Assembly: GCA_963795855.1 (NCBI GenBank)
Contig: CAWCIZ010000001.1
Coordinates: 480,001-544,000, forward strand
Direction of reading: 5' to 3'
DNA: 64,000 nt
Origin: Vulcanimicrobiota bacterium
Lineage (GTDB): Bacteria; Vulcanimicrobiota; Vulcanimicrobiia; Vulcanimicrobiales; Vulcanimicrobiaceae
Positions within the stretch are counted from its first letter, which is position 1, and every line of letters starts with the position of its first letter. The translations under genes were made by a program, and so were the position numbers. The notes below the pieces were generated by a model. The model had not been told where the DNA came from. It ran no database searches and was given only the letters and a program-made list of their open reading frames with translations. Below are positions 31,676 through 35,650 of the stretch, piece after piece.

Positions 31676-32260
31676 ATGAAACGTTTGCTCGCCTGCGCAG
31701 CGTGGGGTGCTGTTGCGCTATTGCCGGTGGCCGCAGGTGCCGTACCGACTACCGTCATTACGCAAACCGCTGCCCCCGTGCAGATCAAGTCGTGTTCCGC
31801 CACAGTAGCGCTATCTGTCCCCGGGTGGTCGAACAATGGCGCGTCCTATGGCCAGTCCGGGTCCGGTGTCGCGGGAATGTCCACCAACGGCCACAGCGTC
31901 TCTTATGGGTCGGGCGATTATTCGGACCATGAAGGTTACCTTTTGGGTCCGTTTTCCGGCGGAACGGACGTCTACGCAACGGCACAGTCCGAAAATCAAT
32001 CCCAAAAAATAGTCACCGGCGTTGTCTACGAATTCAATGTACTGAAAGCGGGCAGCAGCGATCCGCTCGCGATTTTCTACGGCGGCGAAACCGGCAGTTT
32101 TGGAGAAAACGTCGTCATCTCACCGGCGAGCCGGGAAAATCCATCATGGAGCACTAGTCTCGGCGAGACACGCGTCGGCTCCATCGCCTGTTTTATAGCA
32201 TACGTGCGCTTCAGCGACGGCAGCGATTGGACTTCTCCGCTGGCTGTTGTCACGAAGTAG
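31676..32260 (+). CDS. hypothetical secreted protein
   Basis: Signal peptide, two Cys, C-terminal YVRFSDGSDW; more A/T-ending codons than neighbours. Confidence 0.75.
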   Translation: MKRLLACAAWGAVALLPVAAGAVPTTVITQTAAPVQIKSCSATVALSVPGWSNNGASYGQSGSGVAGMSTNGHSVSYGSGDYSDHEGYLLGPFSGGTDVYATAQSENQSQKIVTGVVYEFNVLKAGSSDPLAIFYGGETGSFGENVVISPASRENPSWSTSLGETRVGSIACFIAYVRFSDGSDWTSPLAVVTK

Positions 32261-32264
32261 AACT

Positions 32265-32745
32265 GCGGAGTACGCCTGTAAGCCGGATTCTGTCCCCCGG
32301 CGTGTCGCCGGAGTGACGGCCATCTCTCTTGGCCGCGCGTTGCCGCGAGGCTCGATGCGACGTAGCTCGTTCGGACGGGCAGTCCGCTCCCTCGCCGAAG
32401 CGGTGGAGATATCGAGCGGTCTTGCTTCAGGTGGGGTTTACCCGAGCGCACGTCACCGTGCGGCTCCGTGAGCTCTTACCTCACGATTTCACCCTTACCC
32501 CAAATTGCTAGCGCAATTTGGGACCCCCGTCAGTTTAACAGGCACTCCGGTGCAAGCACCTGCGTGCCCCCCACACGCAAAGCGCGTGGGTCCCCCAGCG
32601 GTCCCAAAAAAACGTTTAGCATTTGGGGCGGTATGTTTCTGTGGCACTTTCCTTCGAGTTTCCCCGACAGGACGTTATCCTGCACCCTGCCCTGTGAAGC
32701 CCGGACTTTCCTCGCCTTGCGGCGCGGCCGTCCGGCGTACTCCGC
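32265..32745 (-). ncRNA. rnpB: RNase P RNA (type A) with enlarged P12
   Basis: GAGGAAAGTCCGGGCT, AGTGCCACAGAAA, GGGTGAAA, GGTAAACCCC, ACAGAATCCGGCTTA; P1 pairing GCGGAGTACGCC/GGCGTACTCCGC. Confidence 0.97.
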
Positions 32746-32819
32746 GACGCGAGTGTACCACGCGGTGGCGTAAAAGCGAATGGCCCCGGATGCAACGCGG
32801 CCATTCAATGTTCTGAATT

Positions 32820-32895
32820 TGGTGGAGGCAAGGAGACTCGAACTCCTGACCCTTACGCTGCCAGCGTAATGCTCTACCAACTGAGCTATGCCCCC
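32820..32895 (-). tRNA. tRNA-Ala(GGC)
   Basis: Canonical cloverleaf, G3:U70, TTACG-CTGGCAG-CGTAA, encoded CCA. Confidence 0.96.
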
Positions 32896-32935
32896 GAAGC
32901 GACCCGCCATGCTTCCCGGCGGGTGCGCAACATCC

Positions 32936-33009
32936 TGGAGATGAGGGGATTCGAACCCCTGACTTCCTGCTTGCAAAGCAGGCGCTCTACCAACTGAGCT
33001 GACATCCCC
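32936..33009 (-). tRNA. tRNA-Ala(TGC), one extra base between acceptor and D stems
   Basis: GGGGATG/CATCTCC with G3:U70, CCTGC-TTTGCAA-GCAGG. Confidence 0.94.
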
Positions 33010-33144
33010 GTTTCTTCGACCGCCGCACGTTCGCAAGGTACCGGTTTCGCACCTGCAAACGTCGAACGGCCCAACGCTAAGATTCGCGTCATGCCTTGCG
33101 CGCCGCCCGCCAAAAAGCCGATACTAAAGATGGAGGCGAAGACG

Positions 33145-33987
33145 ATGATCCATGCGCTGCTTTTGGCCGCTCTGGGTGCCGTTCCGCCGTGTTGGGACGT
33201 CTTCGATGCTGCGCTGCGTCACAACGCAAACGGTGCGCATCCGCCGTACGTAACGTATAGCGAACGAATATCCGTAACTGAAGATCGCACTCCGCTCGTT
33301 TCGAGTATCGCGTATGTGGACTACCGCGACGACGGCGTTGCGCGCGTCATGGACGAGCGATTCAACTACGAACCATTCGTGACGCGTCATGCCGAACCGG
33401 GGCCGCCGGAATTGGGTCCGTATGGAACCAGGCGCGAAATGTGGCTGCCGGATGCCGGCGGCCTGCCGATCATCGCGCAGGTGCGAACGATGGGGGACGT
33501 GACGTGCACGATTGCCGATGAAGAGCCGTACAAGTCACACGAGACGTATCACTTGCATTTCAGCGGCGGACCGGCCACGCGGCCGTCGCTCAAAGACTTA
33601 TGGGTCGACACGAGAACGCGGGACATCTGGAAGCTCGAGATCACCGGTCCCGTCACGTTTTGGAGCGAAGGCAATCGCGATAACGAACTCGCGGAATTTC
33701 AAGTAGAGCTCGGCTATACCGGTCCATACCTGCTCGTGAATCATGTCGTGTGGGCGTACAGCCGCAGAGAGTATTCGCAGCGCGTCGACTATTTCGGCGA
33801 ATACACGTTCAGCGATTACGAATTTCCGGCGAAGATGCCGGCGTCGTTTTTCGGCAACGTGGCCGCAGCTTCCGATCTAGTTGCGAGCGGCCGTAAAAAA
33901 GCAGCCCCGCTTTCGCGGGGCTGCGGTATTGGTGGGCCATCCAAGGCTCGAACTTGGGACCTCATGCTTATCAAGCATGCGCTCTAA
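33145..33987 (+). CDS. hypothetical exported protein, possible LolA-like fold; 3' end doubtful because it reads through a terminator into tRNA-Ile
   Basis: GGAGG RBS before MIHALLLAALG; motifs shared with 10884-11621. Confidence 0.7.
   Translation: MIHALLLAALGAVPPCWDVFDAALRHNANGAHPPYVTYSERISVTEDRTPLVSSIAYVDYRDDGVARVMDERFNYEPFVTRHAEPGPPELGPYGTRREMWLPDAGGLPIIAQVRTMGDVTCTIADEEPYKSHETYHLHFSGGPATRPSLKDLWVDTRTRDIWKLEITGPVTFWSEGNRDNELAEFQVELGYTGPYLLVNHVVWAYSRREYSQRVDYFGEYTFSDYEFPAKMPASFFGNVAAASDLVASGRKKAAPLSRGCGIGGPSKARTWDLMLIKHAL
33895..33924 (-). terminator. intrinsic terminator after tRNA-Ile
   Basis: GCAGCCCCGC..GCGGGGCTGC hairpin with A6 on + strand. Confidence 0.85.
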
Positions 33988-34006
33988 CCAACTGAGCTAA
34001 TGGCCC
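33930..34006 (-). tRNA. tRNA-Ile(GAT)
   Basis: GGGCCAT/ATGGCCC acceptor, CATGC-TTGATAA-GCATG, encoded CCA. Confidence 0.96.
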
Positions 34007-34060: not shown

Positions 34061-34273
34061 CTAGATCATAGCGATGTACTTCTTGAGCGCTTCGTCGTCG
34101 TCTTTGAGCTGGGCGAGCATCATGTCGCGCAGCACGTTGGCTTCGCGCTCGAGTTCCGCGCGTTCTTCCATCTCTCGATCGAACGTCGCTTGTTGCGCCG
34201 TGACGGCATCGTCGGCAGCCGGTTTGGCAGCACGCGCGGGCGTACGCGCTGCCATTTTCGTGCGATCGATCAC
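34061..34273 (-). CDS. small helical hypothetical protein
   Basis: GTGA overlap with upstream gene; C-terminus paralogous to that gene. Confidence 0.75.
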   Translation of the reverse strand: MIDRTKMAARTPARAAKPAADDAVTAQQATFDREMEERAELEREANVLRDMMLAQLKDDDEALKKYIAMI

Positions 34274-34647
34274 TCGGTAATCGACTCGATGAATTTCTTG
34301 GTAATGGCGTCGTCGGCTTTGCGCTGCGCCATCTGAACGTCGCGAAGCGTGTTCACCTCGCGCATCTGCTCCGACTTCTCGTCCATCATCTCGTCAAACG
34401 CCTCGGATTGCACTTGCATCTGCTCTTGGTGCTGAATTTGCTCGGTGTACATGTAGAGTTGGAAGGCTTCGTCGCCGGCGTTAATCGCTCCGAGGCCGCC
34501 GTTTCCCAGCGCACCGGTCAAGTTTCCGGCCGTCGTGCCGCCCATCACGCCTCCGGCGAGCGCGCCGATGCCGGCCAGCAGCGGATTTCCCGTCATCGCG
34601 TACGTCTGCGCACCCATACCCAGCGCGGAACCGATATTCATTTGCAT
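34270..34647 (-). CDS. hypothetical protein, Gly-rich hydrophobic N-terminus and coiled-coil-like C-terminus
   Basis: 125-aa ORF, M/Q/E-rich helix, operon-like spacing. Confidence 0.8.
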   Translation of the reverse strand: MQMNIGSALGMGAQTYAMTGNPLLAGIGALAGGVMGGTTAGNLTGALGNGGLGAINAGDEAFQLYMYTEQIQHQEQMQVQSEAFDEMMDEKSEQMREVNTLRDVQMAQRKADDAITKKFIESITE

Positions 34648-34656
34648 GGTGCGCGC

Positions 34657-34908
34657 CTATGCAGCGATCAGATCCGCATACGACGAGAGCGCGTTCACGT
34701 TCTGCTGCGCCGTCGGATTTTCGGCGCTGAGTTCGTCGAGAAGAGGGCTGAACGTGGGCACCGGCGTCGTTCCGCCCGACTGTGCGGACGAATTCGATAG
34801 CAACGCCATCGCGCCGGCGCCGGCTGCAACGACCGGGTTTGCCGTTTCGGCAAGGGTGAGAAGGCCGGTCGTCACGCCTTTGACGATGCCTCCGAGACTC
34901 AGGTGCAT
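34657..34908 (-). CDS. small hypothetical protein (83 aa)
   Basis: AAGGAG RBS before MHLSLGG; shares modules with both neighbours. Confidence 0.75.
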   Translation of the reverse strand: MHLSLGGIVKGVTTGLLTLAETANPVVAAGAGAMALLSNSSAQSGGTTPVPTFSPLLDELSAENPTAQQNVNALSSYADLIAA

Positions 34909-34957
34909 ACGGTAACTCCTTAAAGTGAGATGCGCAGCGCTATCACGCCCGGCCGCG

Positions 34958-35620
34958 CTAGTTGCTAGATCCGTCCTGCGCAAAAACGATCGATCCGAAG
35001 TCCGGACTATTGTCGCGCGGACGGTTCGGATACGACTGCGGCAGTTCGCTCGGGCAAAGTGCGGGCGCAGGCACCTGAAGCGATGCAAATGACGAGAGTG
35101 CATTGACTGAGGCTTGTTCGTCTTGGCTATCCGCCGACAGCGCCTGCGTCAAAGTTTCCGGCGTGTCGCCTTGGAGGTCGGCGTAATGGCGAAGGACCGA
35201 GTCGGCGTAGCCGAGTCGTCGCCCGTCTTGCCACGACGTGATGGTCCCCGAGGCGTTCGGGTCGCCGGCATTGTACGCCGAAAGCGCCCTATGAACGTCG
35301 CCGCCGTAGCGTTTGAGTAGACCCGAGATCATCCCGGCGGCGTAGTCCGCATTCGATTGCGGATCCATTGCTGCCGCAGTAGTGGCGAAGGAATGGTAGC
35401 GATCGTCGATTTGGAAGATGCCGCGGCCATGGCCGCCGTCTCCGACGACGTTGCGGCCGGCATTGCTTCCCGGACCGCCGGTTTCTTGGGCGGCTACTGC
35501 CGCCAGGAGGGCCGGGTCTACGTGATACTTCCCTGCCGCGCTGGCGATTTCGGGCGCAAAGGCCACCCCGTGGAGCGCGAGCGAGCGGGCGGTCTGCGGG
35601 ATGCTCGTGACGATACTCAT
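34958..35620 (-). CDS. lytic transglycosylase (SLT domain)
   Basis: VDPALLAAVAAQE catalytic Glu, GIFQI, ALSAYNAG. Confidence 0.88.
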   Translation of the reverse strand: MSIVTSIPQTARSLALHGVAFAPEIASAAGKYHVDPALLAAVAAQETGGPGSNAGRNVVGDGGHGRGIFQIDDRYHSFATTAAAMDPQSNADYAAGMISGLLKRYGGDVHRALSAYNAGDPNASGTITSWQDGRRLGYADSVLRHYADLQGDTPETLTQALSADSQDEQASVNALSSFASLQVPAPALCPSELPQSYPNRPRDNSPDFGSIVFAQDGSSN

Positions 35621-35650
35621 GGTGCGGTACCGTCACGACGACAACGCCGT

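Follow-up and report, generated by a model that had tools for sequence, protein, structure and literature searches.

A conserved operon of small helical proteins and a goose-type-lysozyme-like enzyme in Vulcanimicrobiota, and its possible link to a second flagellum-derived export system

Among the components of non-flagellar type III secretion systems (T3SS), the Hrp pilins HrpA, HrpE, HrpY and NopA are small, nearly all helical proteins of 63-113 aa with a variable N-terminus, a conserved C-terminal helix and no Sec signal, as described in PMC3973906. According to the accepted account as given in PMC3459982, the injectisome arose once from the flagellum, via an intermediate that was devoid of motility and kept a needle-like filament. 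Here, we report on an operon of four genes (ORF1 to ORF4) in a stretch of 64,000 nucleotides (the window; G000:C1:480001-544000) from the genome G000 (3.06 Mb, 86% complete) of a member of the phylum Vulcanimicrobiota (Eremiobacterota), an assignment that agrees with the sources of ORF3 homologues (Ca. Baltobacteraceae, Vulcanimicrobiaceae, Ca. Rubrimentiphilum) and with the taxa of the Atlas matches. This operon encodes a peptidoglycan-cleaving enzyme and small helical proteins that share the above features with the Hrp pilins and with the SctF needles. An initial annotation of the window had taken its products for exported structural subunits of a T3SS-like or novel apparatus, linked by a chain of shared modules. 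We found that ORF3 and ORF4 form a core family of their class and that the same genome carries a second, flagellum-derived export cluster. On balance, we favor the view that ORF3 and ORF4 are axial, pilin- or needle-like substrates of this second type III exporter and that ORF1 is an exported muramidase.

ORF3 (34270..34647, minus strand) encodes 125 aa, with a Gly-rich N-terminal helical hairpin followed by a long conserved C-terminal helix, and is the candidate major pilin- or needle-like subunit. ORF4 (34061..34273, minus strand; 70 aa) is a paralogue of the C-terminal helix of ORF3 behind a Pro/Ala-rich N-terminus and is a candidate minor subunit. The common helix is about 55 residues long, ORF3 retrieves ORF4 at E 2.2e-6, and the last 50 C-terminal residues are nearly invariant among 218 ORF3 homologues. 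In the predicted model of ORF3 (pLDDT 69), helices span residues 5-19, 22-34 and 40-124. Both proteins are thus small and helical, with a variable N-terminus, a conserved C-terminal helix and no evident signal peptide. Indeed, as the initial annotation had stated, no clear Sec signal was seen by eye in the operon; ORF1-3 have 0-1 K/R in their first ten residues, and the best 19-residue hydropathy from ORF1 to ORF4 is 0.99, 1.27, 1.32 and -0.05. Pfam and NCBIfam scans of ORF2-4 gave nothing over the cut-off, solved-structure searches with the family alignments A1, A2 and A3 gave no match below E 0.2, and fold searches with two models gave no Foldseek match and only generic coiled coils at Z <8, which excludes nothing. 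Compared with the Hrp pilins, ORF3 exceeds the size range given in PMC3973906, there are two paralogues and no profile matches over its cut-off. The flagellar axial proteins (FlgB/C/F/G, FlgK, flagellin D0) also end in an amphipathic helix at the very C-terminus; however, ORF3 and ORF4 match neither Flg_bbr_C nor flagellin and lack a counterpart of the N-terminal D0 helix and of the D1 domain.

The distribution of this family was assessed in 200 genomes and G000, in which related genomes are not independent. The ORF3/4 profile matches 109/113, 3/3 and 15/15 genomes of the three families of the class (f1, the family of G000, f2 and f3), that is 127/131 in total, and 0/69 genomes of other classes; three marginal other-class matches from a single-protein search were not confirmed by this profile. 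The f3 tallies include the unpublished genome G128, and no claim depends on that genome by itself. Among 1.84 billion representatives, the profile found 99 matches, and the 51 that were inspected are ORF3- or ORF4-type, a few of them fused or frameshifted. Most f1 and f2 genomes have a second family match, which is ORF4. In f3, the ORF3-type gene is the single family member in 14/15 genomes, is devoid of the hairpin and lies near rpmE-prfA, with no ORF1 beside it, in 7/7 loci. The helix family is present in class families that do not have ORF1, and is therefore older than its link with the enzyme. No other paralogue of the helix module was found in G000 or inside the export clusters of the class. 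We also observed by eye that a CTAGAC-N13-15-CG(T/G)GA-like motif, a possible alternative-sigma promoter, precedes the f3 gene in 6/7 loci.

G000 has two FHIPEP genes and two FliP genes, and profile scans located a second export cluster at C3:817691-831882, between rplM and secD. It encodes FlgC, FliE, FliF with a FliG middle domain (FliG_M), FliH, FliI, an SLT of its own, FlgF-like and FliM-like proteins, FliN, FliP, FliQ, FliR, FlhB and FlhA. The first gene is FlgB-like by position and has no profile match, flhB appears split over two frames in G000, and metF and an aspartyl-protease-like gene sit inside the cluster. No hook, flagellin, stator or secretin gene was found among the 14 frames scanned. 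The cluster FlhA scores 633 versus 511 for HrcV, and the ATPase and FlhB score slightly higher with the SctN and SctU models. Full-length strong matches to the second FlhA are present in 95/113, 3/3 and 14/15 genomes of the three families (112/131 in total), and strong flagellin matches in 39/113, 3/3 and 0/15 (42/131, excluding ten weak matches near E 1e-4); even if all 42 flagellated genomes carried the second FlhA, 70 of the 112 would have no strong flagellin match. In a tree of 39 FlhA rows, a quick tree with no bootstrap, a midpoint root, long branches and a thin outgroup, the 28 FlhAs of the second system, which cover all classes sampled, group in one clade (SH-aLRT 99), which is sister to 4 flagellar FlhAs of the phylum (SH-aLRT 94), with 4 SctV apart. 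The co-occurring export machinery that the initial annotation called for is hence present, in the genome and in the class, as a type III exporter distinct from the flagellum.

According to PMC3459982, non-flagellar T3SS are defined by a gate of the SctV clade, the absence of FlgB, FlgC and FliE, and the secretin SctC. By gene criteria, the machine found here is neither such a system nor a flagellum. The secretin-less, needle-less T3SS of Myxococcales (PMC3459982) similarly keeps the gate, ATPase and ring without motility genes, and the flagellar basal bodies of Buchnera (PMC8109811) are likewise a reduced flagellum-derived exporter without them. In contrast to the Myxococcales system as described there, which is devoid of FlgBC and FliE and belongs to the injectisome branch, the second system keeps FlgC, FliE and a FlgF-like gene. 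Moreover, unlike both, it is phylum-wide, coexists with a true flagellum in 42 genomes and apparently has its own pilin-like subunits. Full-text searches, covering few subscription papers, found no paper in which the locus, or a further exporter of flagellar origin in this phylum, is described. PMC9758169, on a cultured member, reports type IV pili and no flagella or flagellin, with only fliN listed; an automated scan in PMC9259500 lists 'T3SS_putative, no_decision' in a marine member, plus flagellar genes; and the main text of PMC13277936 does not name the phylum. Two further observations concern FlhA itself: genomes of other classes have up to 11 partial FHIPEP matches (e.g. G009), many of which are the cytoplasmic domain only, and free FlhA-C domains occur; and G077 (1.9 Mb) has two divergent second-system FlhA copies and no flagellin match.

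In the other classes, short genes lie behind the orthologous flhA. The short helical family that they encode is found in 56/69 other-class genomes and 0/132 class genomes, which is the mirror image of the ORF3/4 distribution, and its genes are often arranged in tandem. Its members come in short, medium and long forms with one C-terminal module, the medium form having a Pro-rich start as ORF4 does. By hand count, members lie ≤7 kb behind flhA in at least 26 of the 36 genomes with a listed position, five more having no profile match (at least 26/41); these putative relatives are thus inside a type III cluster, whereas the class ORF3/4 genes are outside any. The last 21 residues of the other-class family align gap-free with ORF3/4 (K..D....K[FW]...I). 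With C-terminus-anchored other-class matrices, for which the window was chosen after the match was seen, ORF3 ranks 2nd-57th and ORF4 29th-175th of 42,163 frames over five window sizes; among 3,573 coding-like frames, a filter outside which ORF4 falls, ORF3 ranks 1st-5th. In the reverse direction, ORF3/4 matrices place 14-19 other-class members in the top 20 of 2,233. As controls, composition shuffles gave a median z of 2.5-3.3 and register 0 was the best of 25 shifts; the top matches of the other-class matrix also include the C-termini of flagellin, FlgC, FlgG, FlgF and FlgK. With the weak profile comparisons given below also weighed, homology of ORF3/4 to the flhA-linked family appears likely but unproven.

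The nearest named look-alikes of ORF3 in the ESM Atlas are T3SS pilins only (HrpA 0.87, HrpE-like 0.83), values of low recognition value that lie below the trust line of 0.9. An other-class member resembles HrpA at 0.92 (the family being on 24% of cluster members), HrpE-like at 0.88 and needle F at 0.82. Pfam HrpA_pilin matches 12/72 other-class members below its cut-off (21.5 bits vs 25), which is fewer than two unrelated families do. Reference pilins and needles from four annotated T3SS loci rank 1-5 of 163-219 with the anchored matrices in most settings, a weak result that we do not count as support: scores are low, registers shift, the HrpA-position gene ranks 19-31 with the ORF3/4 matrix, one locus's pilin is unscored and two labels are by position only. 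Unlike the exporters of Hrp pilins and SctF, the exporter here is flagellar-type, with FlgC and FliE, and branches away from SctV. In other classes, we also noted a conserved gene of 80-115 aa behind the second flhA (L073:8771-9043, L072:8586-8930, L074:738-977, L116:4956-5249, L119:7787-8113), possibly a chaperone or gatekeeper, of which no homologue was found in G000. In G050, several unrelated longer frames share their first ~30 residues with the short protein linked to flhA, which is what a common N-terminal export signal would look like.

ORF1 (34958..35620, minus strand; 220 aa) matches Pfam SLT (E 3e-11) and SLT_3 and ends in a disordered tail. In common with the goose-type lysozymes and family 1 lytic transglycosylases (GH23) and with EtgA/IagB/IpgF, it has a catalytic Glu and GH23 fold motifs. 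Goose-type lysozymes are 4/5 of its solved-structure matches, and the alignment to 3mgw/4g9s covers Glu46, Asp61 and Asp72, which are conserved in 52, 50 and 52 of 53 orthologous frames. ORF1 therefore possesses the catalytic Glu and both aspartates of the GD..G.GxxQ.D motif by which g-type lysozymes are recognized. In these lysozymes, the two aspartates have a catalytic role and are marks of hydrolysis. Reducing ends produced by hydrolysis, as opposed to 1,6-anhydro products, separate a lysozyme from a transglycosylase (PMC12855814). Unlike EtgA/IagB/IpgF, ORF1 retains both g-type aspartates, has no evident signal peptide and a long disordered tail, and is encoded outside the export cluster; it scores weakly with the IagB profile (30.8 bits vs a cut-off of 208). 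Judged from these motifs, ORF1 is closer to a goose-type lysozyme than to EtgA/IagB. The initial annotation had likened it to the dedicated transglycosylase of a T3SS, a role at odds with the SLT carried by the export cluster itself and with the absence of ORF1 from the 18 genomes of the class's two other families. ORF1 is present in 103/113 own-family genomes and 0/87 others (E 1e-20), and is a family-level addition to the operon. Its tail module (residues 151-181; 35078..35170, minus strand) is conserved among orthologues. In 3,705 frames, a profile of the tail also matches the EQMREVNTL segment (window 34330-34430) in several homologues of ORF3, if only faintly (E 0.02-0.9), so that the tail, too, may derive from the ORF3/ORF4 helix module, as a copy that has decayed.

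The four genes are co-oriented and tightly spaced on the minus strand, as first described, with 49 nt between ORF1 and ORF2, 9 nt between ORF2 and ORF3, and a 4-nt overlap of ORF3 and ORF4. ORF2 (34657..34908, minus strand; 83 aa from an ATG behind an AAGGAG site) consists of an ORF3-like N-terminus and a copy of the ORF1 tail module. The initial annotation had each gene sharing a module with the next, and all three similarities are real: in 2000 shuffles of the proteins, neighbor pairs gave p=0.0005 (ORF1/ORF2), p=0.003 (ORF2/ORF3) and 0/2000 (ORF3/ORF4), and the three non-neighbor pairs p=0.09, 0.32 and 0.60. At the DNA level, ORF3/ORF4 (0/500) and ORF2/ORF3 (p=0.008) stand out, and ORF1/ORF2 is not significant (p=0.72). 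The similarities also hold in family profiles built without the rows of G000, with which ORF2 ranks 2/42,163 genome reading frames for both the ORF1 tail (E 0.0048) and the ORF3 N-terminus (E 0.0012). However, these are three different, unrelated modules rather than one chain. Among 63 loci, which include some genomes twice, this hybrid form is found in only five (G000, G160, G115, G169 and, as an ORF1 fusion, G136; genera g1 and g21). In genus g4, another kind of small gene, in which the tail module stands behind an unrelated low-complexity start, is present at 15 loci, and the remaining loci have no ORF2-like gene. Conservation of the cluster thus applies to ORF1, ORF3 and ORF4, whereas ORF2 is a dispensable accessory. 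We infer from its composition that ORF2 arose by a tandem duplication from the ORF1 tail to the ORF3 start, which would yield exactly the gene order ORF1, hybrid, ORF3. Because ORF2 is patchy and hybrid, the idea that the shared modules are assembly or targeting tags was rejected. The appearance of a chain is an artefact of duplications, and the secretion or filament idea leads instead to an apparently undescribed phylum-wide exporter.

For this exporter and its candidate substrates, we infer the following course of export, polymerization and enzyme action. The second exporter would go back to a duplication of the genes for flagellar export in the phylum's ancestor, and would then have lost its hook, filament and stator genes. 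Subunits without a signal peptide would be exported unfolded through the FliPQR/FlhAB gate, as in established type III biology. Their conserved C-terminal helices might then mediate polymerization on a short, FliE/FlgC/FlgF-like rod, giving a thin hollow thread. The C-terminal helices would line the channel of this thread and, as in Hrp pili, its outer face would be made up of the variable N-termini, rich in Gly or Pro. As neither L/P-ring genes nor a secretin gene turned up in the cluster, the structure may be periplasmic. In this class, the subunit genes would have left the export cluster, and in the own family ORF1 would have joined them; its product, probably exported by the same route, might open peptidoglycan, either of the own wall for assembly or of a neighbor. 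ORF2 would be no more than a dispensable hybrid from duplication across the ORF1/ORF3 boundary.

Several findings weigh against this scheme, in addition to the limits given above for the anchored matrices and the ESM look-alikes. The monomer models are single long helices and not a needle hairpin, and HrpA, SctF, SctI and WXG100 profiles (PF09589 and PF09392 included) give no match to ORF3/4; PF09589 finds nothing in the whole genome at E up to 10. Alignment by hhalign of A2, the joint ORF3/ORF4 alignment, with A3 is weak (probability 8.4%, pairwise E 0.004), and that of A1 with A3 gives nothing. With a broadened other-class family, the probability is 1% (P 0.054), with a reversed control about equal and 2/60 column shuffles as high, and HMMER with the other-class profile fails to retrieve ORF3/4 from G000. 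Operon and export cluster are located on different contigs, and their class-level co-occurrence amounts to a single evolutionary event. Furthermore, ORF3 is broken in several genomes with an intact second FlhA. Conversely, among 11 genomes in which the second FlhA is missing or reduced to fragments, two of which give no clear call, the second cluster is deleted or decayed at the rplM-metF-secD site in nine, and ORF1, ORF3 and ORF4 are apparently intact in four of these (G081, G107, G124, G182). Three loss genomes of genus g8 have a similar deletion, 10-15% metF divergence and no flagellin, and their ORF3 has dN 0.011-0.046 vs dS 0.86-1.32 (from a table without the ORF3 rows of genus g4). This would mean a recent spread or recurrence of the deletion, or else a function of the operon that does not need export. 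As a separate observation, deletion of the export cluster has occurred repeatedly in separate genera, and metF and the protease-like gene were spared. On the side of the exporter, the cluster is conserved, an exporter is present and Hrp-pilin look-alikes were found, so that the notion of exported structural subunits stands in part, export itself being deduced. It is because of the evidence against strict dependence on the exporter that our preference for axial substrates is a cautious one.

The findings in the loss genomes also bear on a different and rather unlikely explanation, according to which the operon, whatever its ancestry, works without type III export as a lysis or wall-remodeling unit. 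The Gly-rich hydrophobic hairpin of ORF3 would then, with ORF4, perturb the membrane or form an internal coiled-coil assembly, and the signal-less ORF1 would thereby reach peptidoglycan, in a holin/endolysin-like manner, in cell separation or in vesicle release. Operons that are intact and under purifying selection in genomes without any export gate would be accounted for, as would the link to a lysozyme-like enzyme in 103/113 own-family genomes, the absence of linkage to the export cluster within the class and the non-significant hhalign homology to the flhA-linked family. However, the ORF3-type genes of both other class families have no ORF1 and the family predates this link, the hairpin is only moderately hydrophobic (1.32) and missing in the f3 form, and the Hrp-pilin look-alikes would be left aside. 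In addition, operon lesions are present in 5/9 loss genomes, as a stop in ORF1, a Leu-to-Pro change in the ORF3 helix, interrupted ORF3/ORF4 or general decay.

It is improbable, in our view, that the second system exports the three proteins as a tip or translocator with its payload, in which the ORF3 hairpin would insert in a target membrane, ORF4 would be a tip adaptor and ORF1 a contact-delivered antibacterial muramidase. The g-type-like active site of ORF1 and the other-class arrays of short, medium and long members with one C-terminal module would suit such an arrangement. Sub-threshold Pfam matches of ORF3 homologues to SctB2 (9/77), T7 gp14 (4/77) and SipB (1/77) point the same way, but they are fewer than the matches to unrelated helical families. 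Moreover, ORF3 is the sole family member in 14/15 f3 genomes, as expected of a major subunit, and no SycD-type chaperone gene was seen beside it. Finally, it is very improbable, and largely refuted on distribution and motif, that ORF3 and ORF4 are exported by the ordinary flagellum or, as a WXG100-like pair, belong to a type VII system. In favor of this, the two are helical paralogues of ~100 aa in tandem, the related matrix gives good scores to flagellar axial C-termini and G000 has a flagellum. However, flagellin is found in 42/131 class genomes vs 127/131 for the ORF3/4 family, no PF06013 match exists in the genome at E up to 1 and the alignments have no WXG motif.

Returning to the exporter with axial substrates, we would only tentatively extend it to a bolder form, which is possible but doubtful. 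In this form, an ancestral, vertically inherited flagellar exaptation, independent of injectisomes, would build an Hrp-like pilus, with which the own family would deliver a goose-type lysozyme against other bacteria. Prophage-like elements would integrate into ORF3 because this pilus would be a phage receptor. The QRKAD codons of ORF3 (34312..34326, minus strand) are intact in G000 and are, in relatives, a recurrent integration site of mobile elements. ORF3 is interrupted at the QRKxD codons in G083, G109, G153, G183, G175, G192 and G160 (an element of ~19 kb in the latter); the G131 contig ends at this site, G173 is struck at the matching place in ORF4 and G177 elsewhere (16 kb). Several element ends have a common sequence. 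The G160 and G177 elements have a large serine recombinase at the junction and a tyrosine integrase, with a terminase also in G177. Such integrations would fit receptor inactivation or regulated excision.

The operon is flanked by tRNA-Ile (33930..34006, minus strand), which lies directly downstream of ORF4 and outside the system, and by a divergent yceD-fabH-fabD-fabG-acpP-ffh run (gene names from reading the translations). The conserved upstream TTGTCAA/ATTGTAG belongs to the divergent yceD promoter. By eye, a GTCG..GGAT-like box (window 35621-35650), possibly an alternative-sigma promoter, precedes ORF1 in the own family, and no promoter common to the operon and the export cluster is evident. 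A further gene (window 33091-33987, plus strand), whose product of ~280 aa begins like a signal peptide and matches nothing in Pfam, lies beside the operon in some relatives. At window 32247-32816 and 32820-33009 lies a sequence similar to RNase P RNA (rnpB), adjoining two tRNA-Ala genes.

To conclude, the second export cluster is a finding in its own right, as an apparently undescribed phylum-wide exporter. If true, a phylum-wide duplicate of the flagellar exporter that has pilin-like subunits, retains proximal-rod genes and is devoid of hook, filament and stator genes would represent an independent, extant example of the transition by which the injectisome is held to have arisen (PMC3459982). 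A cultured member of the phylum exists, for which PMC9758169 reports pili and neither flagella nor flagellin. Our results also imply that counting 'flagellar genes' in such genomes can wrongly suggest motility, and they offer an identity, open to testing, for two uncharacterized core genes in a class that is abundant in soil.

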